A DNA stretch of 64,000 nucleotides from Kiritimatiellia bacterium (GCA_045599445.1 JAZRWB010000075.1:4697-68696), one strand, 5' to 3'. Positions 42,459-62,005 are shown, counted from the first letter of the stretch. Notes: generated by a model not told the origin, from the letters alone. A program made the numbers and translations.

Positions 42459-42477
42459 GTAGGTATAAGTAAAGTAA

Positions 42478-42497: not shown

Positions 42498-42512
42498 ATC
42501 ATCGTTATACGC

Positions 42513-43936: not shown

Positions 43937-43963
43937 TAATATGGTAAAGGTAAAATATTCATT

Positions 43964-44665: not shown

Positions 44666-44686
44666 GCAATAATTTCTTGGCAAATA

Positions 44687-44695
44687 TGATATAAT
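44687..44695 (+). promoter_or_regulatory. Extended -10 promoter element TGaTATAAT (rfbC)
   Basis: ATG 44703 begins 7 nt after the -10, at the expected TSS position (leaderless). Confidence 0.45.
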
Positions 44696-44702
44696 GCGTC
44701 GT

Positions 44703-46018: not shown

Positions 46019-47757
46019 AGACATTTATGAAGGCACTAAAGCCGATAGTTACCGATACATACGATTTTCCGACGCTTATTCGGGATGGAAATGTTTACGT
46101 TGATAAAACGGCGCTTTTACATCGATTGATCTCAAGAGTTGATGGATCGCTATTTTTTATGTCTCGCCCGCGTCGATTTGGTAAGTCGCTAATGATTTCG
46201 ACCTTGGAGCAAATATTTAAGGGGAACAAGGCGCTTTTCAGAGGCCTTGCGATTGCCAAGACAAATTACGATTGGAAATCTTATCCAGTACTTCGCCTTG
46301 ATATGTCACGCTTCGACAATTCATCGGGGGTTGTTGCATTTCAGAATCAGTTAATTGCGAGCTTGGGAGATGGCTTGACGGCCGCTGAGGCATTGGAGCA
46401 TCGCATCACGGAATTGTCTAAGAAATCATCTTTTGGAAAGATAGTTGTGCTTGTTGATGAATACGATAGCCCAATTTCCGGTTTATTAGATCGCCCAGAA
46501 GAAATGGAGCGGATGCGTGAATTATTGCAGTCATTTTATCGTGTTTTAAAGAGTAATGTAGGGCGACTGCATTTTCTAATGATGACTGGCGTGAGTAAAT
46601 TCACGAAGCTATCGGTTTTTTCAGGGATGAATAATTTAACTGACATTTCAATGTCTGAAAATTATGCATCACTTTTGGGTTATACTCGTGAAGAGATTGA
46701 ATGTGTTTTTAGACCGCACATTAAGGCGTTTGCTGATAAGTTGGATAAAACGCCTACGGATATTATAGAGGATTTGCTTGCGTGGTATGATAGTTATCGT
46801 TTCTCTCCTGAAAATGATGTACATGTCAGTAACCCCGTGTCGATTGGTAGAGCATTGCAAGAGCGACGCTTTTATGGGTTTTGGGATGCTACTGGTAGTG
46901 CCACATTGATTGTTGAGAGATTGCGTAAATTAGGGCGCCTTCCGGATGAGATTGAGGGAATTAAGGTTTTCCCTAAAAAATTAGATATTTGCGATGCTAA
47001 AACTTTGCCATTTGCGGCTTTAATGTATCAAGGCGGGTATTTAACTATTAAAGACGTCGATCCGAGTGGTGAGCTTGTGTTGGGCATCCCAAATCGCGAA
47101 GTACGTTTGGCGATTTACGACGGACTGGTCGATTATTTGTTGAAAGATTCTGCAGACGCGTTTACTTCGATGGCAGTTAGCTTAAAAAAACAGTTGGATG
47201 ATGATGAATCTGGCACACAACTAAGACGGGTTTTACAATCGATATTTGCCATGATTCCACACGAGTGGAAATTGAAGAGCGAAGCCGAGGCAAAACGATA
47301 TTTCTTATTGTTCATGAAGATGGCCGGTGCAACCATCAATGCTGAAATTGAATCGGCGAATGGTCGCGCAGATGCAATCCTTGAAACCGAGAAGTGCGTT
47401 TTCATTTTTGAATTTAAATACGGTAAGTCGGCAAATGTGGCGCTCAAGCAATGTCACGCGCGCAAATACGCTCAGCCATACGCTACTGATAAGCGACGTA
47501 TCGTTTATGTCGGGGTTAACTATGACACCCTAAAGCGGGGGATTGACACCCTAAATGACACCCTAAATGACACCCTAAATGACACCCTAAATTCACGCCT
47601 TTTGGCGTTGATTCGTCGGCGTCCTGGTCTGCGTAGACCGGATCTTATGATGTCTTTGGGAGTTTCCGAAAGCTCGGTGGCACGGAGTCTGCGCGAACAA
47701 AAGGATGAAATTGAATTTAGAGGAGCGCCAAAGACAGGCGGATATTTTATCAAGTGA
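46015..47757 (+). CDS. AAA-ATPase-like protein with PD-(D/E)XK nuclease-like domain (PF09820/PF08011 type) plus C-terminal winged-HTH tail
   Basis: 'DFPTLIRDGNVYVDKTALL', 'FFMSRPRRFGKSL' (P-loop-like), 'VLVDEYD', later 'GRADAILETEKCVFIFEFKYGKS' (PD-ExK core). After a (DTLN)4 repeat comes 'LALIRRRPGLRRPDLMMSLGVSESSVARSLREQ'. The start could be ATG 46027 instead of GTG 46015. Confidence 0.7.
   Translation: MKTFMKALKPIVTDTYDFPTLIRDGNVYVDKTALLHRLISRVDGSLFFMSRPRRFGKSLMISTLEQIFKGNKALFRGLAIAKTNYDWKSYPVLRLDMSRFDNSSGVVAFQNQLIASLGDGLTAAEALEHRITELSKKSSFGKIVVLVDEYDSPISGLLDRPEEMERMRELLQSFYRVLKSNVGRLHFLMMTGVSKFTKLSVFSGMNNLTDISMSENYASLLGYTREEIECVFRPHIKAFADKLDKTPTDIIEDLLAWYDSYRFSPENDVHVSNPVSIGRALQERRFYGFWDATGSATLIVERLRKLGRLPDEIEGIKVFPKKLDICDAKTLPFAALMYQGGYLTIKDVDPSGELVLGIPNREVRLAIYDGLVDYLLKDSADAFTSMAVSLKKQLDDDESGTQLRRVLQSIFAMIPHEWKLKSEAEAKRYFLLFMKMAGATINAEIESANGRADAILETEKCVFIFEFKYGKSANVALKQCHARKYAQPYATDKRRIVYVGVNYDTLKRGIDTLNDTLNDTLNDTLNSRLLALIRRRPGLRRPDLMMSLGVSESSVARSLREQKDEIEFRGAPKTGGYFIK
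47524..47592 (+). repeat. 12-bp in-frame tandem repeat GACACCCTAAAT x4 (+1 degenerate copy)
   Basis: Perfect units at 47545-56, 47557-68, 47569-80 and 47581-92, with a degenerate unit GACACCCTAAAG at 47524-35. They encode (DTLN)n between the nuclease-like core and the wHTH tail. Confidence 0.95.
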
Positions 47758-48707
47758 AAAAGATTAAGGTAAAGTTTATCGACTACTACGGGCTAGACCC
47801 GAAGGGTTTGCTGATTTACCAAATCTTGACGAAATTCTACGAAGTCGAGCTTTCGGAGAAGCCCGACTATGTAATCGATGGTGGACTGGGGCGCGAATAC
47901 GTTAATTACGATTGCGTGAAGCTGATTGTAATCGGCGAAAGTTATGTTCCCGATTTCAACGAGTTCGATTATGCCATAGGTTTCGACCATTTGCAGTTCG
48001 GAGACCGATATTTGCGTTTTCCGCTATACGCAATGTACGGCCAATATCGTCAGCTCGCCGAAACTCCGTTGTCGGGCGTCGACCCCAAGCTCCTGCTCAA
48101 TCGTGGATTTTGCAGCTTCGTCGTGTCCAATGACGAGGGCGATCCGATGCGAGTAGAGTTTTTCAAACGGCTCTCCAAGTATAGGCCAGTCGCCTCGGGC
48201 GGCAAGCTTTTCAATAATGTCGGTGGGCGAGTGCCCGACAAGATGGCGTTTATCGCTAAATATAAGTTCAATATTGCCTTCGAAAACTCGTGCGTCCCCG
48301 GATACACGACTGAAAAGGTGATGGAGCCGATGGCGGCGCGTAGCTTACCGATTTACTACGGTAACCCGCTTATTGCCGAGGACTTTAATCCATCGGCGAT
48401 GGTGCACGTCGCTTCGCGCGACGATATGGAGAGGGCGATCGAAGAGATTGTCGCGCTCGACAAGGACGACGACGCCTACTTGAAGCGGCTTTCCGCGCCG
48501 GCGATTGTCCATCCGTACGCATGGCACGAGGCGCGATTGACGGAGTTTTTGCGCCACATCTTCGATCAGCCGCTCGAAAAGGCGAAGCGGCTCAATGACT
48601 ATGGCTATCAAATAAACATTCGACGTCGGCTTCATCGACTCTGGAATATGTACGAGTGGACGAGCCCAGCGAGGATTATCAAACGCATAAAGCGGAAATT
48701 TAAGTGA
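47754..48707 (+). CDS. Family 10 glycosyltransferase (alpha-1,3/4-fucosyltransferase-like)
   Basis: 'KYKFNIAFENSCVPGYTTEKVMEPMAARSLPIYYGNPLIAEDFNP.AMV' closely parallels the H. pylori FutA/FucT core ('YKFNLCFENS...GYVTEK..DAYF..TIPIYWG.P.V..DFNP'). GTG start in a GTGA overlap. Confidence 0.85.
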   Translation: MKKIKVKFIDYYGLDPKGLLIYQILTKFYEVELSEKPDYVIDGGLGREYVNYDCVKLIVIGESYVPDFNEFDYAIGFDHLQFGDRYLRFPLYAMYGQYRQLAETPLSGVDPKLLLNRGFCSFVVSNDEGDPMRVEFFKRLSKYRPVASGGKLFNNVGGRVPDKMAFIAKYKFNIAFENSCVPGYTTEKVMEPMAARSLPIYYGNPLIAEDFNPSAMVHVASRDDMERAIEEIVALDKDDDAYLKRLSAPAIVHPYAWHEARLTEFLRHIFDQPLEKAKRLNDYGYQINIRRRLHRLWNMYEWTSPARIIKRIKRKFK

Positions 48708-49627
48708 AAGTATCGATAATAATTCCCGTTTATAATGTCGAGCGATATCTCGCCCGGTGTTTGGATTCGGTTATCGACGCTTCCCGAAAATTGCTTATTC
48801 GGGACGCCAAGTATTCGGTCGAGATAATTTGTGTTAACGATGGCTCGACCGACGGCTCAACAAAGATTCTTTCTAAGTATGCCGATAAAGTTAAAATCAT
48901 TGAAAAACCTAATGGCGGGCTTGGTTCGGCGCGTAATGCGGGGCTGGACATTGCAACTGGCGACTACATAATGTTTGTCGATTCCGACGACTTTATTGCG
49001 CGCGATGCGCTTGTTAAGTTTGTGGTTGCTGCAGAGTCATCCAATGCGCCGATAGTGGTTTCGACTTCATTCGCGAAAGATACGCTCGACAGTAGGCGTG
49101 GCCGCTTGCCGGTCGGAGATTGGAAACTTCGCCCTGCGAAATGGATTGCCGGAAAGAAGGTGCAGTATTCGGCATGGAATAAGCTTTATAAGGCAGAACT
49201 TTTTAAAGCTCGTCGTTATCCAACGACAATCTACGAGGATTTCCCTGTTACTACTGGGATTTTCTGTGATATTAATTATTTTGCGGCGATTGACGAGCCG
49301 CTTTATATTTATTGTACCAACGATGGCGCCTCATCTCTCGTGCGTTCTCCGCTAACCAAACGTAAAGTCACCGACTCGCTTACCGTAATTCGTATGGTAC
49401 TTGAGTATGTAGAGGGTATGAGTATGCAAAAGCTCAAGTTTGCTCGTCATCAAGCAGCCGATGGGCTTTCATCAACCATTGGTCAGGTTTATAAAGCAAA
49501 GAATGTCGAACTTACAAAGTATTTCCTCGGCGAGCTCGAAAAATTCTTTGACCAATATCCCGAAATGCATAATTTGATTTCACTCAAGGCCAAAGTTCGA
49601 CTTTGGATAATGGCTCGAGACTCTTGA
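48704..49627 (+). CDS. Family 2 glycosyltransferase
   Basis: 'KVSIIIPVYNVERYLARCLDSV', 'NDGSTDGS', 'FVDSDDFI'. Confidence 0.85.
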   Translation: MKVSIIIPVYNVERYLARCLDSVIDASRKLLIRDAKYSVEIICVNDGSTDGSTKILSKYADKVKIIEKPNGGLGSARNAGLDIATGDYIMFVDSDDFIARDALVKFVVAAESSNAPIVVSTSFAKDTLDSRRGRLPVGDWKLRPAKWIAGKKVQYSAWNKLYKAELFKARRYPTTIYEDFPVTTGIFCDINYFAAIDEPLYIYCTNDGASSLVRSPLTKRKVTDSLTVIRMVLEYVEGMSMQKLKFARHQAADGLSSTIGQVYKAKNVELTKYFLGELEKFFDQYPEMHNLISLKAKVRLWIMARDS

Positions 49628-49685
49628 AAAGGTGCGGTAAACGATATTGCGAGACTCTTGAAAAGGTGCGATGGTAAATGATATA
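49616..49685 (+). repeat. About 34-bp tandem duplication spanning the GT2 stop codon and the next promoter
   Basis: CGAGACTCTTGAAAAGGTGCG occurs at 49616-49636 and again at 49650-49670. Each copy is followed by GGTAAA(C/T)GATAT. Only the second copy ends in an intact TGaTATAAT. Confidence 0.9.
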
Positions 49686-49687
49686 AT
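49679..49687 (+). promoter_or_regulatory. Extended -10 promoter element TGaTATAAT (DUF4143 ATPase gene)
   Basis: ATG 49694 begins 6 nt after the -10 (leaderless). It lies in the second copy of the 34-bp duplication. Confidence 0.45.
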
Positions 49688-49693
49688 TCAAAT

Positions 49694-51061
49694 ATGAAAC
49701 GCAAAATATATGAAAAACTTTTACAATGGAAAAACACCAGTAATGGTGAAACGGCACTTTTAATTGATGGAGCACGGCGAGTTGGCAAGAGTTATATTGT
49801 GGAAGAATTTGCAAGAAATGAGTATAAGAGTTATGTAATTGTCGATTTTAGTAAGGTTCAATCAGAATTAAAGCGAGTTTTTAATGAATATTTAAATGAT
49901 ATTGATACATTTTTCTTTTATTTTGAACGTTTGACGAAAGCTAAACTTATACGAGGCAATGCGTTAGTTGTATTTGATGAAGTTCAAAAATTCCCTCGAG
50001 CACGTGAGGCAATTAAGCATCTTGTTAAAGATGGACGTTACCATTATATTGAAACTGGCTCACTGATTTCAATTAATAAAAATGTGAAGGATATTCTAAT
50101 TCCAAGTGAAGAACGTAGGATTCAGATGTATCCTATGGATTTTGAGGAATTTCTCTGGGCTCTTGGAGATGAAGCGACTATGCCACTTTTGCGTGATTGT
50201 TTTACCAAGCATCGTCCGTTGGAAGCGAAAACGCATCGCCAAATTATGGATATTTTTAGGCAATATATGGTTATTGGAGGGATGCCACAAGCGGTAGAGA
50301 AGTTTGTTGCGACGCACAGTCTTGAGTTGGTTGATGCAATAAAGCGTGATATTATTTCGCTTTATCGTGCAGATATTCTTAAGTATTCTGGCGTGCTTAA
50401 GCATAAGGTATTGTCAGTATTTAATGCAATCCCATCTCAACTTTCTAAGCATGAGAAGAAAGTGACTTTATCAGAAATTCGGCGCAACGCAAAAATGCGA
50501 GATTTTGACTCTACGTTTGAGTGGTTAGATGCAGCGATGACGGTTAATGTGTGCTATAATACTACTGAACCAAATATTGGGCTTGAGCTCAATGTGGATC
50601 GTAGTTCATTAAAATGTTATATGGGTGATACTGGATTGCTTGTTAGTCTTGCATTTGGCGAGAGTGAATTGGCAACAAAATCAATTCATGATCGCCTTTT
50701 GACAGGCGATATTGAACTTAATGAAGGTATGATAGTGGAGAATGTTGTTGCTCAGATGATTCGTGCGGCTGGGCATAAATTGTATTTTTACTCAAAATCA
50801 AGCCGCGACGAGGTCAAGGATAGAATGGAAATAGATTTTCTGCTATCAAAATCTATTACTGAACGCACAAATAATATTTCACCAATTGAAGTAAAGAGCG
50901 GACGATCGTATTCAACTCAATCGTTAACGAAGTTTAAAACCAAGTTTGACCGATATCTTGATCATTCGTATGTTCTTCATGTGAAGGATCTTAGGGTTGG
51001 TGATGATGGAACTATGTGTCTTCCGCTTTATATGGCACCGCTTTTAGTTGAACGTATATGA
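49694..51061 (+). CDS. AAA-family ATPase with DUF4143-type C-terminal domain (AAA_14/DUF4143 architecture)
   Basis: 'ALLIDGARRVGKSY' Walker A, 'VVFDEVQ' Walker B, and the typical 'IETGS' block. The C-terminal region has 'YFY' ... 'EIDFLL' ... 'IEVK', a restriction-endonuclease-like pattern. Very low GC. Confidence 0.75.
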   Translation: MKRKIYEKLLQWKNTSNGETALLIDGARRVGKSYIVEEFARNEYKSYVIVDFSKVQSELKRVFNEYLNDIDTFFFYFERLTKAKLIRGNALVVFDEVQKFPRAREAIKHLVKDGRYHYIETGSLISINKNVKDILIPSEERRIQMYPMDFEEFLWALGDEATMPLLRDCFTKHRPLEAKTHRQIMDIFRQYMVIGGMPQAVEKFVATHSLELVDAIKRDIISLYRADILKYSGVLKHKVLSVFNAIPSQLSKHEKKVTLSEIRRNAKMRDFDSTFEWLDAAMTVNVCYNTTEPNIGLELNVDRSSLKCYMGDTGLLVSLAFGESELATKSIHDRLLTGDIELNEGMIVENVVAQMIRAAGHKLYFYSKSSRDEVKDRMEIDFLLSKSITERTNNISPIEVKSGRSYSTQSLTKFKTKFDRYLDHSYVLHVKDLRVGDDGTMCLPLYMAPLLVERI

Positions 51062-52065
51062 CAATTCCTATCGTTCATTGCTTCGATCATAATTACGTTT
51101 TACCAGCGGCGGTTGCGTTTCAGACGCTACTCGAAAACGCCAAGACGCCGAATGCGAGCTACGAGCTTTACGTCATCGGCTCTGGAATTACCGATGCGGA
51201 CAAGGCGCTGCTTTCCAAGGTCGTAGCCAAGTTCCCCAACGGAAGATTGACGTTTCGCGAGCCGCCGAAGAATCCCGTTCCCGAAGGCGGGATATCCAAG
51301 AAGGGCCATTATTCCGCAGATTTGTACTACAAGTTGATGCTGCCAGATTTATTCCTGGAATTGGACAAAGCGATTGTTGCGGATGTGGATGTGGTTTACG
51401 AGGATGACATTGCCAAGGCGCTTGAGCTCTTTGAGGCGGATGGGAAGGCACTGGTCGGCGGCGTGTGGGATCTTGGATATGCGGCATACCACAAGGCGGG
51501 ATTGTTTCCGACTGGCAAGCCGCTTATCAAGAGGTATCTTCGCAAATATTCACCAAGCGAGGTGGATGCGCTGAGGATTGGCGCGGGATTGCTCGTTTAC
51601 GATATGCGCCGATTGCGGGAGGATGGTATGGCCCGCGAATGGATGAATTTTGCCGTTAAAAATTCGTATCGGGCGATATTGCCCGAACAGGAGGCGATAA
51701 ATCTCGTTTGTGGTGATAAGCTTATGATGCTTCCGCTTAACTTTATGGCAATTGCCGAGCATGCGGCGGCTTTTGATGAAATGACTGAGGATGAGCGCAG
51801 ACGTAATTCTGCATGGAATGAAATGTATGCGCGACCAGTTCAAATGCACTACGCTTCCGCGACCAAACCGTGGAAAGACCCCGGATCGTCGCGCGCCGAT
51901 TTATGGTTTGCCGCCTGTGCGCGTGCTGGGCTTATTGAAGAATGGAGAGCGTGGTATGCAAAGTACTCGCGTCCCATCGTCGAGTTGATGGAAGCAAAAC
52001 GATTGCTAAGTATCTCTTGCTCTATCGGCAAGCGCATTTTCAATTTGCAATTGACGAAGCGATGA
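51058..52065 (+). CDS. Family 8 glycosyltransferase
   Basis: 'IPIVHCFDHNYVLPAAVAFQTLL', 'ADVDVV' (DxD), 'GAGLLVYDM', 'PEQEAINL', 'HYASATKPW'. Confidence 0.8.
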   Translation: MTIPIVHCFDHNYVLPAAVAFQTLLENAKTPNASYELYVIGSGITDADKALLSKVVAKFPNGRLTFREPPKNPVPEGGISKKGHYSADLYYKLMLPDLFLELDKAIVADVDVVYEDDIAKALELFEADGKALVGGVWDLGYAAYHKAGLFPTGKPLIKRYLRKYSPSEVDALRIGAGLLVYDMRRLREDGMAREWMNFAVKNSYRAILPEQEAINLVCGDKLMMLPLNFMAIAEHAAAFDEMTEDERRRNSAWNEMYARPVQMHYASATKPWKDPGSSRADLWFAACARAGLIEEWRAWYAKYSRPIVELMEAKRLLSISCSIGKRIFNLQLTKR

Positions 52066-52991
52066 TACCCAAGGTCACTATTGCCACGGCCGCTTATAAT
52101 GTACTTTCAAGTTGTGGCTTGGAGGCGATGGAAGAGAGCGTGCGAAGCGTTGCCGCGTTGCCAGTTGAGCATGAGCATATTATTTATGATGGCGCTTCGA
52201 CGGATGGAACGCTTGAGGCGCTACGCAAGTTGGGGAAAGAGATTTCTACTTTAAGGATAGTATCGGAAAAGGATTCGGGAATTTATGATGCGTTAAATAA
52301 GTGCCTACGTGATGCGCGGGGCGATTATTTTTATGTACTAGGGATGGATGATCGGATTATTGATGGTGAAGCGTTTTGTGAATGTGTGACCAAGGCGCTT
52401 AGGAACAAGGCGGACATGTTGATTGCAAAAGTCGTGATGCAAGATAAGCGTGATGTTCGCCCGGCGACCATGTTTGGAAGCTATCGCCACGCACGGATGC
52501 ACAGCTACAGTCATCAAGGAGTGATGGTGAGGACGGCTTTGCTGAAGGAATATCCTTTTGATCAGAGTTATCGCATTACGGCGGACTATAAGCAACTGCT
52601 TACCCTTAATTGGAATGGGGTAAGAGTTCGTATGCTTAATAAGAAGATCGCATATTGTTCTCAAGCCGGTGTATCGTCTATGGTAACTGAAAGGTGCGCT
52701 GAAGAGACCATTAGGGTGCAAAAAGAAGTATATTCATTAACCGATATAGAGATAAAGAAGTTTTTGGATAGTGGATTTTTGCCATTCAGGGTAGTTGCGC
52801 ATCTTTTGTTTGTCGGCGGTGTTTTTTCGCTTTTCATGGGATTGTCCATATTGGGTTCCTATATTTGGCGTAAGCATAAGACGAATTTGCATAGTAAATA
52901 TTATTTATTTAATTTGTTGATTTATCAACATTTGAAGAAGTCAGCTCGTGCTGATAAAACGAAAGGGAAACTGTGTCAAAATATTGGTTAG
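52062..52991 (+). CDS. Family 2 glycosyltransferase with C-terminal TM segment
   Basis: 'VTIATAAYNV', 'IIYDGASTDGT', 'LGMDDRI', and a hydrophobic tail 'VVAHLLFVGGVFSLFMGLSILG'. ATG 52062 is in an ATGA overlap. Confidence 0.7.
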   Translation: MIPKVTIATAAYNVLSSCGLEAMEESVRSVAALPVEHEHIIYDGASTDGTLEALRKLGKEISTLRIVSEKDSGIYDALNKCLRDARGDYFYVLGMDDRIIDGEAFCECVTKALRNKADMLIAKVVMQDKRDVRPATMFGSYRHARMHSYSHQGVMVRTALLKEYPFDQSYRITADYKQLLTLNWNGVRVRMLNKKIAYCSQAGVSSMVTERCAEETIRVQKEVYSLTDIEIKKFLDSGFLPFRVVAHLLFVGGVFSLFMGLSILGSYIWRKHKTNLHSKYYLFNLLIYQHLKKSARADKTKGKLCQNIG

Positions 52992-53977
52992 TATCATTTG
53001 CTGATTCTCGGATGCAAGGCGCATTAAATCGGCTAAGAGCTCAAGCCGATGGGGTTAATATATTTGGAGATAGGATTTGCTTATTTACTGAGAACGATTT
53101 AGACCCACAATTTAAAAAACAAATGGCCAATCGCCTTATTCTTGGTTCGCGTGGGTATGGTTATTGGTGCTGGCGTCCACAAATTATACTGCAGATGTTT
53201 GAGAAGATGGACGATGGCGACGTTTTATTATTTGTAGATGCTGGGTGTCACATTAGAAAGGAAGGAGCTACTCGTATACGTCAGTATCTTGAGTTTGCAG
53301 CGAAATATGGGATTTTAGCATTTTCGTATAAGCCATTGGATGAAACGGAGGCAAAGGATATATCAACGCATTTTTTTGTTGAAGGTGAATGGTGTAAAGG
53401 AGATGTCTTAGATTATTTTGGTGTACGAAATCGTGAGGATATAGTTCAAAGTGGGCAAACTTGCGGTGGTGTTTTTTGCGCGAAAAAAGATGTTTCGGTT
53501 ATTGATTTTTTTAAGCGAATTAAAAACATTGCGGTCAATCATTATAATCTTATCGACGATAGTCCATCTATTTCTGCTAATTTGCCTATATTCAAAGCAC
53601 ATAGGAATGATCAATCAATCTTCTCTATTATGGTGAAATTGGCTGGATACCCAACTATTTCTGCAGGAGAAACTGATCGTATAGGAATATGTGCCAATCG
53701 AGAAGGGAATGATTGGCCGAAGACATGGGATGATGTGATTAACTTGCCAGTTAACCCTGGAATACTGGCAAAAAGAGATCTTGGTGTTTATAAGTTATTT
53801 TTTAGGAAGAAGGTTCGCCTTTTTAAAACAATAATATTTTTTAAGTTTAAATTATATGGCGAGAGAGGATGGAAGTGTGATGAAAAACAGTTGCTTTCGG
53901 TATGGTGTAGCCCGATTGTACATTTTCGTAGGCGCAATACTTTATATGTTTTTGGTAAAGAAATTGAGACAAGATAG
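52973..53977 (+). CDS. Hypothetical protein, possibly a glycosyltransferase
   Basis: 'YWLVSFADSR', 'GYGYWCWRPQIIL', 'LLFVDAGC' is reminiscent of small nucleotide-sugar transferases, but I cannot name the family. The sequence is AT-rich and the start is GTG. Confidence 0.35.
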   Translation: MSKYWLVSFADSRMQGALNRLRAQADGVNIFGDRICLFTENDLDPQFKKQMANRLILGSRGYGYWCWRPQIILQMFEKMDDGDVLLFVDAGCHIRKEGATRIRQYLEFAAKYGILAFSYKPLDETEAKDISTHFFVEGEWCKGDVLDYFGVRNREDIVQSGQTCGGVFCAKKDVSVIDFFKRIKNIAVNHYNLIDDSPSISANLPIFKAHRNDQSIFSIMVKLAGYPTISAGETDRIGICANREGNDWPKTWDDVINLPVNPGILAKRDLGVYKLFFRKKVRLFKTIIFFKFKLYGERGWKCDEKQLLSVWCSPIVHFRRRNTLYVFGKEIETR

Positions 53978-53987
53978 GAAGTATAAT

Positions 53988-54641
53988 ATGAACGTATTTG
54001 AAAAAATTAGAGATGGTGATAAGCGTATAGTGAAGATGTTTGGATTCACCATAATGTCTTACACTCATCGCGAATCGAGCGTTCCGATTTTTATGTCACG
54101 TTCAAATAATGAATTAATTAATATTCCTCGTGGATGTAGAATTGAGATATTTGGAGAGCGCAATCGTGTTGTTTTTAGAGGAAAGGGTGGCGGTACTTTT
54201 TCGGGAACAATTTATATTGGGGATTCAAATTGTTCAACTAATGATTGTTTTGTTGAGATTGGTGATGGCACTGCGGCAAACGGGTGCATAATACGCCTAA
54301 TGGAAGATAATACTAAGCTTGTCATGGGCAATGATTGCATGCTATCGGATAATATACATATATGGGCTTCTGATACTCATACCATTACTGATGCAAGTGG
54401 AAAAATAATTAATTGGGGGAAGTTTGTTGAGATAGGAAGCCATGTATGGATTGGGACTGGTGTTACAATACTCAAAAACACTAAAATCCCATCCGGAACA
54501 ATAGTTGGCGCGCATAGTGTTGTGTCCGGATGTAAAATAAAGGAAGAAAATTGTATTATTGCCGGCAGCCCAGCTAAAGTCGTCAAGACTAATGTAACAT
54601 GGCATCGCGAGCGTCCAAAGCAATATTTACGCGAAGGATAA
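53988..54641 (+). CDS. Hexapeptide-repeat (left-handed beta-helix) acetyltransferase
   Basis: 'VMGNDCMLSDNIHIWASDTHTI', 'VEIGSHVWIGTGVTILKNTKIPSGTIVGAHSVVSG'. I preferred ATG 53988 to the track start 53856, which would overlap the previous gene. Confidence 0.75.
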   Translation: MNVFEKIRDGDKRIVKMFGFTIMSYTHRESSVPIFMSRSNNELINIPRGCRIEIFGERNRVVFRGKGGGTFSGTIYIGDSNCSTNDCFVEIGDGTAANGCIIRLMEDNTKLVMGNDCMLSDNIHIWASDTHTITDASGKIINWGKFVEIGSHVWIGTGVTILKNTKIPSGTIVGAHSVVSGCKIKEENCIIAGSPAKVVKTNVTWHRERPKQYLREG

Positions 54642-54662
54642 ATTAAATGGAGAAATATAGAT

Positions 54663-55694
54663 ATGGAAATTTCAGTCATAATGCCAGTATACAAGGTGGA
54701 GAAATATCTTCGCCAAGCAATTGATTCGGTTTTAGCGCAAACCTTTAAGGATTTTGAGCTAATTATTGTTGATGATGGCTCTCCTGATGGTTGCCCAGCA
54801 ATTTGCGATGAATATGCCAAAAAGGACTCAAGGATTAAAGTTATCCATAAAGAAAATGGAGGATCATCTTCAGCACGTAATGCAGGACTTGATATTGCTA
54901 AGGGTAAGTGGATTGCGTTTATTGATAGTGATGATCAGTATAGGCCCGAGATGCTTATGAAGATGTGGACATTGGGTGGGCAAGATGATGAAATCGATTA
55001 TGTGCATTGTAGTATCGAAATGGTATCTAATGGTTTTCCTATAACAAAAGAAGATATAGAGTACAATACTCAACCATTTGATGACATTCGTTCATTAACA
55101 AACGAGATAATTTTATCATCCGATTGCTCTACATGTAATAAATTGTTTCGCGCAGATATAGTTAATTCATTTAAATTGCGTTTTCCTGAAGGTTTGCGAT
55201 TTGAGGACTTTTTCTTTTATAATGCATTTACAATAATTGCTCGCAAAGTTGGATTTATATCTGATAGGCTGTATGTGTACAGGCGACGCCCGAATGCAAA
55301 TGTGACGCAGATGATGGGCAATGATGTTAATGTTTCGCATATATTTGATCCTATTATCATATGGCGCACATTGGTGGATTTCTTGAAAAGGTGTGAAAGA
55401 TTGCAAGGACAGCAACATGTGGTGTTTCAATTACTTATGCAGTGTATTAGTATTTCAAATCTTGATGTTCCAAAAGCAGTAGGAATTTGTGCAGCAAAAG
55501 GGTTGCTTTCGTATGCTAATCTTAATCCGCGAGATTTTACATTTGGTGAAAAAGCTAATCTGTTTTGGTGGCGTCATGGTAAGCCAGGTGGTGGATCCAT
55601 TAAATATCTTGGCGGATTAATTAAATTACAATTGAGAGAGCGAAAGATTAATGTACGGCTTTTTGGCATCAGAATTTTTACAGTTAATATTTGA
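54663..55694 (+). CDS. Family 2 glycosyltransferase
   Basis: 'ISVIMPVYKVEKYLRQAIDSVLAQTFKDFELIIVDDGSPDG', 'RNAGL', 'FIDSDDQ'. Confidence 0.88.
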   Translation: MEISVIMPVYKVEKYLRQAIDSVLAQTFKDFELIIVDDGSPDGCPAICDEYAKKDSRIKVIHKENGGSSSARNAGLDIAKGKWIAFIDSDDQYRPEMLMKMWTLGGQDDEIDYVHCSIEMVSNGFPITKEDIEYNTQPFDDIRSLTNEIILSSDCSTCNKLFRADIVNSFKLRFPEGLRFEDFFFYNAFTIIARKVGFISDRLYVYRRRPNANVTQMMGNDVNVSHIFDPIIIWRTLVDFLKRCERLQGQQHVVFQLLMQCISISNLDVPKAVGICAAKGLLSYANLNPRDFTFGEKANLFWWRHGKPGGGSIKYLGGLIKLQLRERKINVRLFGIRIFTVNI

Positions 55695-55699
55695 TTAAG

Positions 55700-57481
55700 A
55701 TGAAGTATATGAAAACTTTTTTCTGGATTTCTATCTCGGCGTTAGCTTACATATTGCTTACGGTGCTAGTTTGGTATCCGTTGATGATTTTTTCATTGGA
55801 ATGTGATTTATTTGATACATCGGTTAATGCAATTTTTTGGAGTGGAATACTTTATGCCGCATTGGTAATTGGTATATTTACTCTTTGTTGGTGGTTTTTA
55901 TTGCGTAACCGTGCATCGGTTTGGATTGCATCATTTCTTTGCTTTTGCGGTATTATTGTGTATTTTTATCTTTTTATCTGCCCTGTAAATACTGGTACTT
56001 TGCAAGGCGCTGAATTAATGAATGCTGATGCAATTAGTCGTAGTGTACTGGAGAAAATCGTTGAGATAGCATTACTGGCTGGATTGTTTTGTATTTGTAG
56101 ATTGTTAATAAATAGATTTAGCTTTTGGTGTTTTGTTGCCGCTTTTTCTGTACTTAATTTGTTAGCTGCGATTCAAGCAATAGCTGCGATTGCCAATCAA
56201 CATAGATGCGATGATTGCGAGACAGTATCTGTTAATGATGTTGATTTAACAAAAGAAGGAATTAAACTATCTACGGTACATAACAATGTGTTTGTGTTTT
56301 TATTAGATATGGTCCAAGGCGCGTCATTTAGAAATATATTTGACGACAAAAGTATTGCTTCAGAATTGGATGGTTTTGTTTGGTATTCTAACTGTGCATC
56401 AGTTGCAAACATGACAATACCATCAACATTATCAATTTATGGTGGATATAAATATTCTCCAGGAGAAATTGGACGTCTACCTGGCTCTATAGATGACAAA
56501 TGTGCGCAAGCAATGGGTGAACTGGTGAATGACACTTCATCACTTGGATATGATTTTTCGTATTATTATCGCCGAGCTAATTTGGAATTTAAGAATAAAT
56601 GGATGACATCGTCACCGCTGTTCTCGCAAGAGTTATTGTCTAGGCTATTAGATCAAGAGATATGTACAATAGGGAAATTAAAACTTGATATTTTGCGCTG
56701 TTTTTCTTTGTTTCGCGCAGCTCCACTATTGCTCAAAAAATGGATATATCATCGTGGGTTTTGGAGGTTTTGTGATGAGCCAGATGGATGTGTTTCTTTT
56801 GGACAGGAGCATTCATTTTGTAGAGCGTTACCAATACTTTCCGTGGCACATAGTGGGGGGCGAGGTAATGTCAATTTTTTCCATACGGATATTACCCATA
56901 ACCCATGGGGTGTCCCAGAAAATGGACATTTAGAAAAATGTGATAATGTTAAGATATTATCTTGGACTATGCGACAACTGTGTGCATATTTTAAGTGGAT
57001 GAAGGCAAATGGAGTTTATGATAATACGCGAATTATTATTTGTTCAGATCATGGACTATGTAATATGAAGAATGATGATTTTAATCCTGATACCGATCCT
57101 ATGTTGCATCGAGAGCTTTGGGAACAATTAATAAGTGGGGTAAAAGATAGTAGTTGGCTGGAGGAGCAGAGGATTCAGTCACTTAATGCACTTTTATGTG
57201 TGAAAGATTTTGGTGTAAGATCGTCAATTCGTGAATCTAAAAAATTAATAAGTAATGGTGATATTAGAGAACTGGTGACATGTGACAATGTACAATCATC
57301 GGTTGGTAATATGCCATCGACGCGTAGGGCATATATTTGCGAGCCTCCAAAAGATGGTTCTTGGTTTCATGGTGAACAAAATCACAATCTTAATGCTTTA
57401 GTTGGGTTTGAGATTAGAGATAACATTTATGATTTGAGGAATTGGGTGCGCATTCCAACCTTGGATAGCATAGGAAAGTAA
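55700..57481 (+). CDS. Membrane protein of the alkaline-phosphatase/sulfatase superfamily (second, AT-rich paralogue type)
   Basis: About 5 N-terminal TM helices, then 'NVFVFLLDMVQG' and 'IIICSDHG'. The architecture matches 39888..41492. I preferred ATG 55700 to TTG 55691. Confidence 0.5.
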   Translation: MKYMKTFFWISISALAYILLTVLVWYPLMIFSLECDLFDTSVNAIFWSGILYAALVIGIFTLCWWFLLRNRASVWIASFLCFCGIIVYFYLFICPVNTGTLQGAELMNADAISRSVLEKIVEIALLAGLFCICRLLINRFSFWCFVAAFSVLNLLAAIQAIAAIANQHRCDDCETVSVNDVDLTKEGIKLSTVHNNVFVFLLDMVQGASFRNIFDDKSIASELDGFVWYSNCASVANMTIPSTLSIYGGYKYSPGEIGRLPGSIDDKCAQAMGELVNDTSSLGYDFSYYYRRANLEFKNKWMTSSPLFSQELLSRLLDQEICTIGKLKLDILRCFSLFRAAPLLLKKWIYHRGFWRFCDEPDGCVSFGQEHSFCRALPILSVAHSGGRGNVNFFHTDITHNPWGVPENGHLEKCDNVKILSWTMRQLCAYFKWMKANGVYDNTRIIICSDHGLCNMKNDDFNPDTDPMLHRELWEQLISGVKDSSWLEEQRIQSLNALLCVKDFGVRSSIRESKKLISNGDIRELVTCDNVQSSVGNMPSTRRAYICEPPKDGSWFHGEQNHNLNALVGFEIRDNIYDLRNWVRIPTLDSIGK

Positions 57482-57490
57482 GATGTTAAA

Positions 57491-57595
57491 ATGATTAAGG
57501 TTTATACATACTTTTGTACTTCGTCAATTCACAAGGGCCATCTCAATATTATCAACGAAGCTTGCAAACTCGGTGAGCGTCGATTGAAAAAGTAA
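57491..57595 (+). pseudogene. 34-codon remnant of a cytidylyltransferase (HxGH nucleotidyltransferase N-terminus only)
   Basis: MIKVYTYFCTSSIHKGHLNIINEACKLGERRLKK*. 'IHKGHLNIINEA.KLGE' matches the H-x-G-H block of TagD/phosphonate-pathway cytidylyltransferases ('LIHPGHLNIIKEA.KLGE'). No continuation is found in any frame. Confidence 0.5.
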
Positions 57596-57829
57596 ACGAA
57601 AGTTTATGGTATTGAACAGGCCTCGGCGGCGTTTTGCGTTGTCGAGGTTTTGTTTACTTTTGCAAAGATGGCGAAATTCGTAGAAATTATCAGAGTCGAA
57701 GATGAAGTCGAAGTCGAACAAAGGAGGGTAGAATTCCTCTGTTCACCCTCAACTTCAACTATCTCTTCAAGCGAAAGTCGTATCTACGACTTGGAAGTTG
57801 CGTAGGCCCAGGGTATTTACAAATTGCGC

Positions 57830-57859
57830 TTGCCGTTGATGAGAATAGTGTGGTATAAT
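57830..57859 (+). promoter_or_regulatory. Promoter of the non-coding transcript
   Basis: TTGCCG (57830-35), an 18-nt spacer, then TGgTATAAT (57851-59). It matches the extended -10 consensus that recurs upstream of operons in this window. Confidence 0.6.
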
Positions 57860-57865
57860 AGACAT

Positions 57866-58262
57866 ACATTGATCTTTGACATCGGCGGGTGGCAGTTGCG
57901 CCCGCTATCGGGCTGAAGCGAGAAATCGTCGAGGCCAGAACCTCAAAATCGGAGTCCACAACGAGCCGAGGAGAGGAGTTGGGAACTCCCAAAAGGATCT
58001 TGACAGCGTACGCAGCTTGCGTACTGAGCTTTATCTGAAAACCGCTAATTTCCAGAGAACTAAAGCGAGGTATGTGAGTGCGTCACGTGGCAAGTTCCAT
58101 GTGGCGTGCTTTCTGATCGTGTTTTAGTTCGGGCTCTTAGCGGTGCCTCTTGTAAGACAAGATTCGGAGGGTGCGCCACACTATTTCCACGCAAAAGAAA
58201 CGCGAGAGAACAAGCGGCACATTCAACCTGAGCGACAGATGTGAATGTGCCGCTCTTCTTTT
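57866..58262 (+). ncRNA. Candidate ~400-nt structured non-coding RNA (family unknown), or long structured leader
   Basis: Bounded by the promoter above and an intrinsic terminator, with no credible ORF. G+C is about 52% by hand count against roughly one-third in the flanks. It has multiple hairpins, including a 13-bp stem (58078-58109) with four G.U pairs that are only possible on the + strand. Confidence 0.5.
58213..58262 (+). terminator. Rho-independent terminator
   Basis: 13-bp perfect stem AGCGGCACATTCA / TGAATGTGCCGCT (58213-25 / 58242-54), a 16-nt loop, then CTTCTTTT. Confidence 0.8.
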
Positions 58263-58319
58263 ACCCGGGCGGGGAGGGTGGTGCAAGGTATGGGGCGCGG
58301 GAAAAGAAAGGGAGCTTAA

Positions 58320-58694
58320 ATGAATGCTGAAGAAATAATGAAAATTCTATATTCAACTTCGAAGGAAGATTGGATTGTGTCCCCTGATACAGATTCATAC
58401 ACTTACAGAGCAGATGTTTTATTGAGGATACAAAAACATCCTGTTGATTATTCCATTACGTTTGAGGGTGAGGATTGGGCTGTGGATCATAATGACCCTA
58501 ATGCATACAAGGTCATTTACGGTGTTTACTATGGGGATTCCTTTATAATAGAGAAAACCCTTGTTGCCGTTGATGGTTGTCGCGCAATTTTACCCATGCC
58601 CCGAAAGGGTACGACTGAAATCTCACTCGAAGACTACAAGTTCGCGAAGATCGTTGCTCCTAATTCGTTGGATGAATACATAGCTCGTTCGTGA
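58320..58694 (+). CDS. Hypothetical 124-aa protein
   Basis: GGGAG RBS 6-10 nt upstream. Soluble, acidic/aromatic composition (MNAEEIMKILYSTSKEDWIV...). No motif recognised. Confidence 0.55.
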   Translation: MNAEEIMKILYSTSKEDWIVSPDTDSYTYRADVLLRIQKHPVDYSITFEGEDWAVDHNDPNAYKVIYGVYYGDSFIIEKTLVAVDGCRAILPMPRKGTTEISLEDYKFAKIVAPNSLDEYIARS

Positions 58695-58764
58695 TTAAAT
58701 GTAGCTGAGGCTAATTGATAGCTATTGCCTTTACGCGATGAATTACATTAGTAAGGAGAACGAT

Positions 58765-59676
58765 ATGATTAAAGATAAAAATACCCTTGACAAGTGGTTT
58801 GCGAATAATTATCAAGGTTATGGCGAGGTTGAGAATCTTTATCATTATACGTCTATTGAGGCATTGGAAAGTCTGACGCGAGGAGAGGGCGATCTTCGAC
58901 TCACACATTACAAATTCTTAAACGATAGAAGCGAGTTCGACATTGGAAGGCAAACTATAATTGAAATTCTTCAAAGCCTAAATCTTGAGCATAAAGAAAA
59001 GTATCTTCAAGAAATTCAAGGGAATGACCTTGATACGCAATTCCTTCAGAAGCAGTATCAGATGCCTTGGATCGCGTCGTTCTCTGCCGAACGTGATTCT
59101 TTATATCAATGGATTGCATACACGCCTCGTGACAAGGGCGGTATCGCATTGTCACTGAATACCCGAGAATTGTTGCAGAAGGTGCAAACAGCAAATGCTT
59201 CTTATGGAAGGTTTGATTGTGACACGGGATTAGTGCCTTGCATTTATCTTGTGCCGTGTTTCTATAAAAATAAAGACACGGACCGATTAAGTGAGTTTGT
59301 CGATTTTCTATTCGGAACGTATTTGCCCGATGTTCAATCACGATGCAAAAAGGAAGAGGGGCGTAGGACTGCTTTCTATGAGGTTGTGATGATCGGTTCG
59401 TCGCTGATTAAGCATGATGCATTCCGCTTTGAAAGGGAATGGAGGATTGTGTTTCTTCCGAATCAAGAGGAGCAGATGAAGGTCGTTATGCCGTATGGGA
59501 ATAAGTTAGCATCTGGACTTTGGGATGCCCAACACCCCTTTGGGCAGGATGTAAAAGAGGTTATGCTTTCGCCACATGGGAACCTCGAGGCTCTTTCAAA
59601 GAAGGTAAACTGGATAAAGGAAATGCGGTCGTTGCCGTTTAAGCTGTCGCCAAGTGACATACCGTATGTAGGTTGA
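58765..59676 (+). CDS. DUF2971-family protein
   Basis: 'NLYHYTSIEALESL.......LRLTHYKFLNDRSEF' matches the DUF2971 N-terminal signature (YHYTS...L...NDP.E). ATG 58765 has AAGGAG 6 nt upstream; the track start is 58738. Confidence 0.65.
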   Translation: MIKDKNTLDKWFANNYQGYGEVENLYHYTSIEALESLTRGEGDLRLTHYKFLNDRSEFDIGRQTIIEILQSLNLEHKEKYLQEIQGNDLDTQFLQKQYQMPWIASFSAERDSLYQWIAYTPRDKGGIALSLNTRELLQKVQTANASYGRFDCDTGLVPCIYLVPCFYKNKDTDRLSEFVDFLFGTYLPDVQSRCKKEEGRRTAFYEVVMIGSSLIKHDAFRFEREWRIVFLPNQEEQMKVVMPYGNKLASGLWDAQHPFGQDVKEVMLSPHGNLEALSKKVNWIKEMRSLPFKLSPSDIPYVG

Positions 59677-59742
59677 AAGCGGAAGAAAATATAAGCAGGT
59701 TCAAGAAGAATTTGCGGAATTTAGCAAGGAAGGAAAGAAAAA

Positions 59743-61914
59743 ATGAAAAAGATGATTGGTGCGCTGTGCTGTGTATTGCTGTCATTGTCTCTATTTTCCG
59801 ACATCAAAGTTTCGGATGTGAAGGTATTTTCGGGTTATCCGTGGCATGAGGTGGCTATCGGATACACGATTACCGGCACTGCGGATGAAACCTTTGGATT
59901 GCAGATTTCCGCTACGGATAATGTGAGTGGTAATAGTTACGAATGTAAAACGCTTGATGGTGTGAGTTTGACAGAAGGTAACCATATTGTAAAGTGGAAT
60001 GCTTCTGCGGATGGAGCAAAGTTTAAATCAAGTAGTGTGGTTTTTACTGTTAAAGTCGGAAAACTCCAATATTGTGTAGTCGACCTTTCGGGCGGAACGA
60101 TGGCTACAAGCTACCCTGTAACGGAACTGATAGACGTTCCGTGCGGCGGTTGGACAGATGAGTACAAGACGACAAAGCTCGTATTACGGCGCATAGAGGC
60201 GGGATCGTTTATCATGGGAGACGACCAGGCGAACGAAGTGCATCGTGTGACACTAACATGCCCGTTCTATATGGGTGTCTTTGAAGTGACACAAAAACAG
60301 TGGTCTCTTGTGATGGGGACGGTTCCTTGGTCGAGTACTAGATACGGAAAGGGCGAAGATTATCCAGCGCATTACATTTCGTATGATATGATTCGAGGTA
60401 ATGTAAAGGGTGCCCTTTGGCCGATTTCGTCGGAGGTAGATCTAGACAGTTTTATGGGAAAACTTCAATTGAAGACTGGGCTCGTTTTCGATTTACCGAC
60501 TGCGGCTCAATGGGAGTATGCCTGTCGTGCGGGATCAACAACGACCTACTATTGGGGTAATGTTATACATGGCGATTTTGCGTGGTATTCTTCCAATTCA
60601 AATGGTAAGGCACATCCTGTCGGAACAAAGACACCAAATGCCTGGGGACTTTATGATATGAGTGGTAACATGTGGGAAAGATGTAGGGATTGGGCTGGAT
60701 CGTTGGTGTATGGAATGGATCCTCAAGGTGTGTACTTTGACGTTGGACGAGAGGATCGTGGTGGTTCGTTTGACAATTCGGAAGGGAGTCTTGTGTCATC
60801 CTTGCGTCACAGTCAAAGTCCGGAAGTCCCGGACGATGACTTTGGATTTCGCGTTTCTAGAACTCTTGTTGCTAATTGTTCAGTCGTATTTAACGCTACC
60901 GGTGGAGCGGTGGGAATGGCATCACGAGTAATCAATTGTGGTACACCTCTCGGTGTACTTGAGACCCCCGTACGAGAAGGGTTCGAGTTTTTGGGTTGGT
61001 ACACGGCTGAAACGGGCGGGACTCGTTTCGACGAGTCAGCGATTGTGCGTGGCGATTTGACGCTTTATGCGCGATGGGTGCCGATAGATGAAACTGAACT
61101 GTATTGTGTCGTTGATCTTTCGGGGGGGACAAGCGTGACTAACTATTCAGTATCGTATATGAACGCTGTTCCTGAGGGAGGTTGGACGGATGAGTATAAG
61201 ACAACAAAACTCGTATTGCGCCGTTTGAATGCGGGCACGTATGTCATGGGGAATGATCAAATGGATGAGACGCATCGAGTGACGCTCACGAAATCGTTCT
61301 ATGTGGGTGTCTTCGAAGTGACGCAGAAACAATGGTCTCTTGTGATGGGGACGAATCCCTGTGCCAACACTTCTTACGGGAAAGGGGATGATTATCCTGT
61401 TCATTATGTCTCATATAATATGATTCGTGGCAGTTTGGAGGGGGCTCAATGGCCGACATCATCGACCGTTGATACGATGAGCTTTGTCGGTCAATTGAGA
61501 ACGAAGACAGGACTTGATTTTGATCTGCCGACTGAAATACAGTGGGAATATGCGTGTCGTGCGCATTCTGTGACCGGATATTATTGGGGTAATTCTATGA
61601 ATGATGATTACGCATGGTATGATTCAAATTCTGGTGGCAAAACACATCCGGTTGGAAGGAAACGACCGAATGCTTGGGGGCTGTACGACATGTGTGGCAA
61701 TGTGTGCGAATGGAATCTTGACTGGTATGACTCGACCCTGCCGTACGGTACAGAACCAAGGGGGCCTTCTTCTTCGGGGGTGGGGCGGGTGTTTCATGGT
61801 GGTGGCTGGTTTGCTAATGCGAACAGCTGCACGTCATCCTATCGGGGCGGTTGTCCTCCGGTGGGTGCCAACAATGACAGCGGTTTTCGCCTAGTCAGAA
61901 CTCTGTCCAAGTAA
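59743..61914 (+). CDS. Secreted protein with Ig-like N-domain and two FGE-sulfatase (SUMF1/C-type-lectin-fold) domains separated by a Listeria-Bacteroides repeat
   Basis: Signal peptide MKKMIGALCCVLLSLSLFS. Two copies of 'GGWTDEYKTTKLVLRR...G.FEVTQKQWSLVMGT...YP.HY.SY.MIRG...WEYACRA......YYWGN....DYAWY..NS.GK.HPVG.K.PNAWGLYDM.GN..E'. Between them lies 'FNATGG...REGFEFLGWYT...G.RFDE' (Flg_new-type repeat). Confidence 0.75.
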   Translation: MKKMIGALCCVLLSLSLFSDIKVSDVKVFSGYPWHEVAIGYTITGTADETFGLQISATDNVSGNSYECKTLDGVSLTEGNHIVKWNASADGAKFKSSSVVFTVKVGKLQYCVVDLSGGTMATSYPVTELIDVPCGGWTDEYKTTKLVLRRIEAGSFIMGDDQANEVHRVTLTCPFYMGVFEVTQKQWSLVMGTVPWSSTRYGKGEDYPAHYISYDMIRGNVKGALWPISSEVDLDSFMGKLQLKTGLVFDLPTAAQWEYACRAGSTTTYYWGNVIHGDFAWYSSNSNGKAHPVGTKTPNAWGLYDMSGNMWERCRDWAGSLVYGMDPQGVYFDVGREDRGGSFDNSEGSLVSSLRHSQSPEVPDDDFGFRVSRTLVANCSVVFNATGGAVGMASRVINCGTPLGVLETPVREGFEFLGWYTAETGGTRFDESAIVRGDLTLYARWVPIDETELYCVVDLSGGTSVTNYSVSYMNAVPEGGWTDEYKTTKLVLRRLNAGTYVMGNDQMDETHRVTLTKSFYVGVFEVTQKQWSLVMGTNPCANTSYGKGDDYPVHYVSYNMIRGSLEGAQWPTSSTVDTMSFVGQLRTKTGLDFDLPTEIQWEYACRAHSVTGYYWGNSMNDDYAWYDSNSGGKTHPVGRKRPNAWGLYDMCGNVCEWNLDWYDSTLPYGTEPRGPSSSGVGRVFHGGGWFANANSCTSSYRGGCPPVGANNDSGFRLVRTLSK

Positions 61915-62005
61915 TTATATGGCAAAAGGAATCGGGTACGTGTGTTAGGTTCGGCAGTACCCTTCCGTGGGCCGATGAAGAAAAGAATGCGAAATGGATA
62001 GGTTG

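Follow-up and report, generated by a model that had tools for sequence, protein, structure and literature searches.

The plus strand of a 64,000-nt stretch of DNA from a Kiritimatiellia bacterium (GCA_045599445.1, JAZRWB010000075.1:4697-68696; hereafter the window) contains a promoter at 57830-57859, a structured non-coding RNA of about 320 nt (57870-58190), a hairpin with a U-tract (58213-58262), and an open reading frame (ORF) starting at 58320. Judged by sequence comparison, this RNA is not an orphan but one copy of a large family distributed over several phyla. We consider it somewhat probable that nucleotides 57866-58262 are the 5' leader of the operon starting at 58320, represent an undescribed family of structured leaders, and work in cis as a switch with two states. 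A preliminary description, made from the window alone, had proposed a novel structured RNA on the plus strand of this region. Homologues, covariation and strand asymmetry support this proposal, and no known RNA family matches.

The ORF (58320-58694, plus strand) is the first gene after the leader and encodes a protein of 124 aa with only seven homologues in the protein collection. An exact-protein look-up of contigs gave no match to it. On the contig of one homologue (L001), the gene is preceded by a non-coding segment related to the window RNA (nhmmer, E = 1e-19). An 18-mer conserved between the two, GGCTCTTAGCGGTGCCTC (58132-58149 in the window), was used as the key for a scan over one genome per GTDB species. 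It matched 82 loci, about 75 of which are homologues, and nhmmer aligned approximately 70 of the 82 to the window RNA. A covariance model built from 73 loci recovered 75 loci at 75-172 bits (cmsearch), with the window scoring 133.8 bits. The linkage to the downstream gene also persists at greater distance: three homologues of the 124-aa protein (P0006, P0002 and P0001; 47-69% protein identity) are likewise preceded by the RNA, which is retained despite divergence down to 25-34 bits in some cases. The hosts are mostly Kiritimatiellia from gut and rumen, represented by metagenome-assembled genomes (MAGs). Others belong to the Verrucomicrobiota (including Methylacidimicrobium), the Lentisphaeria/Victivallaceae, and the Bacteroidota (Kaistella, Chitinophagaceae, Prolixibacteraceae, Draconibacterium, Flavobacteriaceae, and Sphingobacterium). 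Several MAGs carry two or three copies, which differ within the same MAG, and the window has one. RNAs of the Kiritimatiellia type also occur on contigs labelled Limosilactobacillus gorillae, Oscillibacter, Clostridia, Bacteroides, and Bacteroidales (L042, which is CAVJWR010000012, and L041, L045, L047, and L087). Mis-binning of MAG contigs, not real transfer, probably explains these cases. A pattern search of IMG/VR and BLAST against phage and plasmid collections found no copy of the RNA, and an origin from a phage or plasmid was rejected on these grounds.

The core common to the family spans about 180 nt and consists of a hairpin, P0, followed by a rod of the helices P1, P2, P3, and P4, whose internal loops contain conserved GAAA and GCCUC motifs around P2 and GGGCUC on the side of P3. 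P0 (58008-58014/58018-58024) is 80% paired and occurs in all classes including the Bacteroidota, with a GNRA-type or AACA loop in other members. The closing helix of the core, P1 (58030-58036/58150-58156), is 97.8% paired among 81 sequences with compensatory changes in all seven pairs; the window forms five of these and has two mismatches. P2 (ACCGCUAA/UUAGCGGU, 58041-58048/58137-58144) is flanked by the conserved loops GAAA, UUUYCA, GGGCUC, and GCCUC. It appears invariant because its 3' strand was part of the search key, and the invariance of the 18-mer as a whole is an ascertainment effect of the search. In divergent copies found by the covariance model, both strands of P2 are replaced, by CGACCAAA/UUUGGUCG in L036 and by GCCUGAGA/UCUCAGGC in L005 and L002, while the GAAA, GGGCUC, and GCCUC loops are kept. 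The L036 locus carries two copies of the RNA 3.3 kb apart (1854-2037 and 5121-5313), the second of which has the fully compensated different P2. At L082:2031-2200 the 5' strand of P2 is lost and the 3' half, P4, and P5 (see below) are kept, so that this copy looks decayed or rearranged. P3 (GAACUAAA/UUUAGUUC, 58057-58064/58123-58130) is 95.3% paired, and all eight pairs show compensatory changes. P4 (58078-58090/58097-58109) is a 13-bp hairpin stem with four G.U pairs, as the preliminary description had noticed; it is 92% paired with mostly one-sided changes.

The best-supported helix of all is a long-range pairing, P5, between GUGGCGUGCUUUC and GAGGGUGCGCCAC (58101-58113/58167-58179), which forms the 13-bp terminator stem of the family. 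It is 99.2% paired, five of its pairs show compensatory changes, and nearly every position pairs in 46 of 46 class-1 sequences. Class-2 copies form P5 with a different sequence, and by eye it is also present in the Bacteroidota and in two Verrucomicrobiota loci (L029 and L060). Covariation was evaluated in two kinds of alignment. In the core alignment of 73 sequences, RNAalifold recovered P1 to P4, and 20 of 31 pairs showed compensatory changes. In an alignment of 81 matches fitted to the model, which inflates percentages of pairing, standard pairs occupy 97.1% of the cells, compared to 73% after shuffling and 37-44% when the partners were slid against each other. Two-sided changes affect 29 of the 31 pairs in this set, and the covariation score is 0.652 versus 0.196 for shuffled and at most 0.11 for slid partners. 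MAFFT alignments yielded the same helices as the model-fitted alignment. A naive covariation scan of all columns against all others was too noisy for use. The search for relatives that the preliminary description had called for did find homologues, and their substitutions compensate the stems rather than disrupt them.

The fold can be assigned to one strand. G.U pairs outnumber A.C combinations by 287 to 32 in P1, P3, and P4 and by 96 to 2 in P5; therefore, it is the sense (plus) strand RNA that folds, and a structure of the antisense RNA or of template-strand DNA is excluded. The same conclusion had been drawn from the four G.U pairs at 58078-58109 in the window only, and the counts extend it to the family. 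The minimum free energy of 57861-58262 is -160.4 kcal/mol on the plus strand (z = -5.7), compared to z = -3.0 on the minus strand.

Kiritimatiellia copies possess an additional 5' domain of about 140 nt, which comprises the helices H1 to H4 and lies behind an invariant UCUUU motif. The domain is specific to one Kiritimatiellia class and, among 19 full-length sequences, 86-96% paired with compensatory changes. The motif itself (UGAUCUUUGACAU, 57870-57882), whose UCUUU is invariant in the full-length alignment, is common to class-1 and class-2 Kiritimatiellia copies. H1 (57884-57891/57899-57906) is paired in 86-93% of the cells, with seven of eight pairs compensatory, and H2 (57911-57914/57933-57936 and 57918-57920/57927-57929) in 93-96%, with six of seven. 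H3 (CCUC/GAGG, 57941-57944/57973-57976; 88% paired) is preceded by a conserved CAGAACCU; an inner helix, H3b (57949-57952/57966-57969), was rejected with 51% pairing. H4 (57978-57984/57998-58004), with an inner UCC-CAAAA-GGA hairpin (57987-57989/57995-57997), is 91% paired and compensatory in eight of ten pairs. Further contacts found no support: pairing of the UCUUU motif with purine tracts and the loop-loop contacts GGCUC/GAGCC and GCCUC/GAGGC involve partners that are either invariant or not conserved. Six local hairpins had been predicted from the window. Three of them, at 57884-57906 (H1), around 58008-58024 (P0), and 58078-58109 (P4), are conserved with covariation. The hairpin at 58028-58066 exists as a weaker alternative (69% paired) that overlaps the much better-supported P1 and P3, and those at 57975-57989 and 58148-58162 are peculiar to the window, the family favouring 57978-57984/57998-58004 over the former. 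The long-range helices P1, P2, P3, and P5 had been missed.

The RNA occupies a constant position. Of 58 related loci, 42 have a promoter-like site (score of at least 9) that precedes the 5' motif by 12-94 nt, and nearly all of these sites have a TG-extended -10 element close to TATAAT. At the other end, the next start codon follows the 18-mer at a median distance of 114.5 nt (quartiles 107-146), which places it about 45-50 nt past the U-tract, and the gene is always co-oriented. P5 is followed by a U-tract with at least five U in nine nucleotides in 69 of 73 members (median 7). In many Kiritimatiellia members this U-tract and the following G+C clamp pair with a purine tract that bears the Shine-Dalgarno sequence (SD) or the start codon. 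The corresponding elements in the window are a pyrimidine tract at 58256-58265 and a purine tract at 58299-58308, which adjoins the SD GGGAG (58310-58314). The 3' strand of P4 (58097-58109) overlaps the 5' strand of P5 (58101-58113), and because of this shared strand both helices cannot form in full. In constrained folds of the window core, the structures with P4 reach -73.5 to -74.2 kcal/mol and those with P5 -71.1 to -76.9 kcal/mol, a difference of only about 3 kcal/mol. A third partner may take part as well: the P0 region can pair with the 5' strand of P4, an alternative that is about 91% paired and barely varies. By analogy, it would create a relay of pairings like that in classical attenuators. 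Both the constant, co-oriented site some 45-50 nt ahead of a start codon and the competition between the terminator stem and an internal helix argue for a leader acting in cis rather than a free-standing non-coding RNA gene.

The data show homology, base-pairing, the strand that folds, the placement with respect to promoters and start codons, and the strand common to P4 and P5; from these we infer termination, switching, and the involvement of any ligand. The leader would work in cis with two states. In the first, P4 would retain its 3' strand and RNA polymerase would read on into the operon; in the second, the tail would capture the same strand, P5 would arise immediately ahead of the U-tract, and transcription would stop. 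Pairing of the U-tract with the SD-bearing purine tract would add a translational layer. The choice between the states could be set by a small ligand, an ion, a protein, or an RNA bound by the conserved loops.

Several observations weigh against this model. In the lower half of P4, changes are confined to one side, which leaves the antiterminator pairing less proven than P5. P5 could also coexist with P1-P3 as a pseudoknot, in which case the U-tract would simply mark the end of a stable RNA. The window copy itself has a weak family U-tract, and the inflated pairing percentages of the model-fitted alignment and the ascertainment of the 18-mer mentioned above have to be counted here as well. Moreover, metabolite riboswitches usually precede genes of a shared pathway, and the lack of such a theme is unusual. 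The 52 downstream proteins contain 53 Pfam families, none of which occurs in more than three of them. In the absence of a common pathway among these genes, nothing hints at the ligand.

The downstream products include BspA-type leucine-rich repeat proteins, Sel1, sulfatase, and FGE-sulfatase proteins, EcoRI-type and type I methyltransferases, MmeI, Mrr, SNF2 and ResIII helicases, RadC, and zinc ribbons. Methyltransferases, RadC, and helicases are encoded behind class-2 copies. Clustering of 439 neighbouring ORFs revealed one recurrent group only, large surface proteins found at 11 loci including the window, and no partner protein. Searches of the Bacteroidota downstream genes against NCBIfam and Pfam were uninformative.

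How far the element resembles a riboswitch has to be weighed against this diversity. The RNA shares with riboswitches a structured domain in a 5' untranslated region that is supported by covariation, and a mutually exclusive pairing (P4/P5) that overlaps this domain and ends in a U-tract. Genes pointing to one ligand or pathway do not follow it. The nearest analogy among riboswitch and attenuator leaders is the multi-copy c-di-GMP-I (GEMM) riboswitch, which precedes very diverse genes. As in such leaders, a promoter precedes a conserved domain of several helices whose loops contain invariant nucleotides, the terminator stem shares a strand with a helix of the domain, and several copies per genome stand before unrelated genes. 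In contrast to them, the RNA matches no Rfam riboswitch in sequence or structure, and the strand common to both helices is located far inside the domain, which results in a long-range or pseudoknot-type terminator helix enclosing about 53 nt. The phyla also differ, being the Planctomycetes-Verrucomicrobia-Chlamydiae (PVC) group and the Bacteroidota. We regard as a tentative, rather doubtful extension that the family is a new riboswitch class of these phyla, whose GAAA/GGGCUC/GCCUC core would bind a global signal, for instance an ion or a second messenger, and thereby control both the transcription and the translation of surface-protein and defence genes acquired by horizontal transfer. A long leader with a competing terminator and antiterminator is also reminiscent of T-box leaders, and UUAGCGGUGCC is faintly similar to the T-box sequence. 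This likeness is not backed by Rfam, the downstream genes do not encode aminoacyl-tRNA or amino acid functions, and a specifier-loop architecture was not identified. Conserved structures before genes for DNA handling (methyltransferases, RadC, and anti-restriction functions) are known as the radC and STAXI motifs, and the class-2 copies reside in just this context. Unlike these motifs, which are both represented in Rfam and gave no match, the family studied here mostly precedes surface proteins, and its sense-strand RNA clearly folds (for the radC and STAXI RNA motifs, see Weinberg et al., 2010, PMC2864571).

Searches against known families were negative throughout. With Rfam 15 (4227 models) at the gathering threshold, the whole window contains only a tRNA gene (29682-29755), and at E values up to 10 the region 57300-58800 gave only snoRNA, miRNA, and CRISPR-repeat noise. 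Among 16 related loci only a tRNA was found, 14 loci searched at E values up to 5 yielded two unrelated matches only, and none of 30 related loci matches any Rfam family. These results bear out the initial impression that signatures of RNase P, tmRNA, signal recognition particle (SRP) RNA, 6S RNA, or a riboswitch are lacking. tmRNA, RNase P, 6S, GOLLD, ROOL, HEARO/omega RNA, EAR, T-box, and glmS were rejected as candidates, as Rfam matched none of them at any threshold. The RNA was also not found in the literature searched by sequence and topic, which included a survey of non-coding RNAs in 50 genomes and the first 200 of the 408 supplement files of a catalogue of human-microbiome RNAs. The family, absent from Rfam 15 and from this literature, is thus apparently undescribed, and it may possibly exist as an unnamed entry in a large computational catalogue.

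The likeliest of the alternatives is a free-standing small RNA gene. Such an RNA, either a regulator acting in trans or a protein-binding RNA such as a 6S-like rod with a central bubble, would be transcribed from its own promoter and end at P5 or the second terminator, and the downstream gene would be incidental or read through. The promoter and terminator-like end, the irregular rod-like shape, about 180 nt long and interrupted by large internal loops, the high conservation of the loop sequences across phyla, and the several copies per genome are all compatible with this view. We nevertheless deem it unlikely: the gene behind the RNA always has the same orientation and starts about 45-50 nt past the U-tract, this U-tract pairs with the SD region, and the linkage of the RNA to one family of small proteins outlasts sequence divergence. 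Moreover, neither 6S nor another Rfam model matches, and, unlike 6S RNA, the element is multi-copy, always a 5' leader, and conserved in its loop sequences. A position in the leaders of accessory operons (for surface proteins, at the edge of a polysaccharide island, and for restriction-modification), terminators just downstream, and the lack of a ligand-related gene theme would also fit processive antitermination as mediated by EAR, put, and LoaP-type leaders. Here the RNA, with or without a NusG-type factor, would let RNA polymerase pass terminators within surface and defence operons obtained by horizontal transfer. The likeness to these cis-acting structured RNAs, which head accessory surface or polysaccharide operons and have terminators nearby, is limited, however. 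The P5 terminator stem is built from the element itself instead of following it, the element is much larger, no NusG paralogue or other conserved partner gene was found within 4 kb, and the models of EAR and related elements do not match. This explanation appears quite improbable.

A mobile promoter or leader cassette, or an element acting at the level of DNA such as a miniature inverted-repeat transposable element, a single-stranded DNA promoter of a conjugative leading region, or a recombination site, would reduce the structure to inverted repeats. The multiple copies, the location in an AT-rich island, the mosaic boundaries of homology in the window (at about 57798, 58187, 58229, and 58303), and class-2 copies before methyltransferases, RadC, and helicases typical of mobile elements could be explained in this manner. 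We consider it very unlikely, since the roughly 9-fold to 48-fold excess of G.U over A.C shows that the sense strand folds and excludes an Frpo-like transferred template strand. In addition, irregular loops are conserved, the start codon follows at a fixed distance and in a fixed orientation, neither terminal inverted repeats nor target duplications were seen, and the viral and plasmid collections named above contain no copy. Small ribozymes typically have conserved loop nucleotides framed by covarying helices, occur in multiple copies, and lie next to unrelated genes. The conserved loops between covarying helices and the diverse gene contexts of the family thus resemble those of a self-cleaving or otherwise catalytic RNA, and the short motifs GCCAGAAC and GCGGxUGCCUC resemble glmS, a likeness that Rfam does not back. 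As no ribozyme model of Rfam including glmS matches, and the part formed by P4, P5, and the U-tract resembles an expression platform rather than a feature of ribozymes, catalysis is a highly improbable function. That a decayed gene or a chance structure is observed has a negligible probability, and the decayed-gene version is refuted. A frame of 83 codons starting with TTG does exist in the window, but it is closed in L088, L034, and other relatives and lacks a Pfam match, and neither version is compatible with compensatory substitutions in the helices and the low z-score. A retron or reverse-transcriptase system was rejected as well: the 312-aa protein encoded downstream is a DUF2971 protein, and PADLOC reported only weak matches to PDC-S31 and PDC-S50.

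Inspection of the locus agrees with a non-coding leader. As had been noted at the outset, the region 57481-58320 has no credible ORF; the only frames are the TTG-initiated one (57876-58127), an antisense frame of 77 aa (57759-57992), and shorter ones. None of them matches Pfam, stays open in the closest relatives, or is kept among homologues, and a pseudogenised protein gene, which had been named among the observations that would refute the proposal, was not found. The sigma-70-like promoter (57830-57859, plus strand) is present as described, with the -35 element TTGCCG (57830-57835), an 18-nt spacer, and the extended -10 element TGgTATAAT (57851-57859), and it predicts a transcription start near 57866. 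Its sequence is identical in L088 and L034. It had been called the best site of the window; within the 55-61 kb interval scanned, two other sites reach its score of 10/12, neither of them with an extended TG. The noted G+C enrichment of the RNA was also found (49-55% over 57800-58300 in 200-nt windows), whereas the flanks measure 36-42% and not 30-33% as first estimated. The genome outside the AT-rich island has a G+C content of 60-68%. This island (approximately 42000-62000, 37-48% G+C) contains genes for glycosyltransferases and membrane proteins, and the RNA lies at its downstream edge. A 34-aa remnant of a cytidylyltransferase N-terminus, MIKVYTYFCTSSIHKGHLNIINEACKLGERRLKK followed by a stop, is encoded at 57494-57598. 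Downstream of this remnant, a 15-bp hairpin with a T-run (57618-57650) closes the glycosyltransferase island. Within the 55-61 kb scanned it is a further terminator, so the hairpin behind the RNA is not the sole one as had been thought.

The copy in the window is a mosaic and departs from the family pattern. The family U-tract (58180-58189) is decayed in it: the nine nucleotides after P5 (58180-58188, ACUAUUUCC) contain four U, which places the window among the four exceptions in the family. Further downstream lies a second hairpin, the perfect 13-bp stem at 58213-58225/58242-58254 that had already been recognised, followed by CTTCTTTT. Its 3' strand, GUGCCGCUCUUCUUUU, resembles the normal tail of the family. 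With a G+C-rich stem directly before a U-tract (CUUCUUUU), the segment 58213-58262 has the form of an intrinsic terminator. Since the family U-tract is decayed and the second terminator looks constitutive, regulation in the window copy may differ from that of the family or be lost. The extra module (58190-58303), which comprises the perfect hairpin and the new U-tract, is shared only by L079, which matches 58020-58303 at about 80% identity and then runs into an unrelated gene. In the closest copies (L088, L034, and L085, all from one MAG) homology detected by BLAST extends from 57798-57822 to 58185-58187 at about 85% identity, and in L006 it covers 58229-58696, from the second hairpin through the ORF. 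This mosaic suggests that the leader sits at recombination joints, as if it were swapped as a module before different cargo genes.

The genes behind the leader deserve brief mention. The 124-aa protein weakly matches the candidate defence family PDC-S50 in PADLOC (E = 6e-4), and the DUF2971 protein (58738-59676) weakly matches PDC-S31. The adjacent gene (59743-61914) encodes a 723-aa protein that consists of a Flg_new repeat and a C-terminal FGE-sulfatase domain. It contains an internal duplication of about 530 nt: a single stretch of L061 and L057 aligns with both 60160-60728 and 61192-61725. Diversity-generating retroelements usually target the FGE-sulfatase (C-type lectin) fold.

To our knowledge, few large and deeply conserved bacterial RNAs remain to be described. 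The RNA spans at least four phylum-level groups of poorly studied, mostly uncultured bacteria, the Kiritimatiellia, Lentisphaeria, Verrucomicrobiota, and Bacteroidota. Its covariation is of the quality of a validated RNA class, and its anatomy is that of a genetic switch. The genes behind it, which encode surface proteins and restriction-modification systems, shape interactions with hosts and phages in gut and rumen communities. If the riboswitch interpretation were true, a single RNA sensor would be wired to dozens of unrelated accessory operons. The discovery of a ligand or factor would show how these bacteria control their accessory genes, and would provide a portable regulatory part for organisms that have almost no genetic tools.

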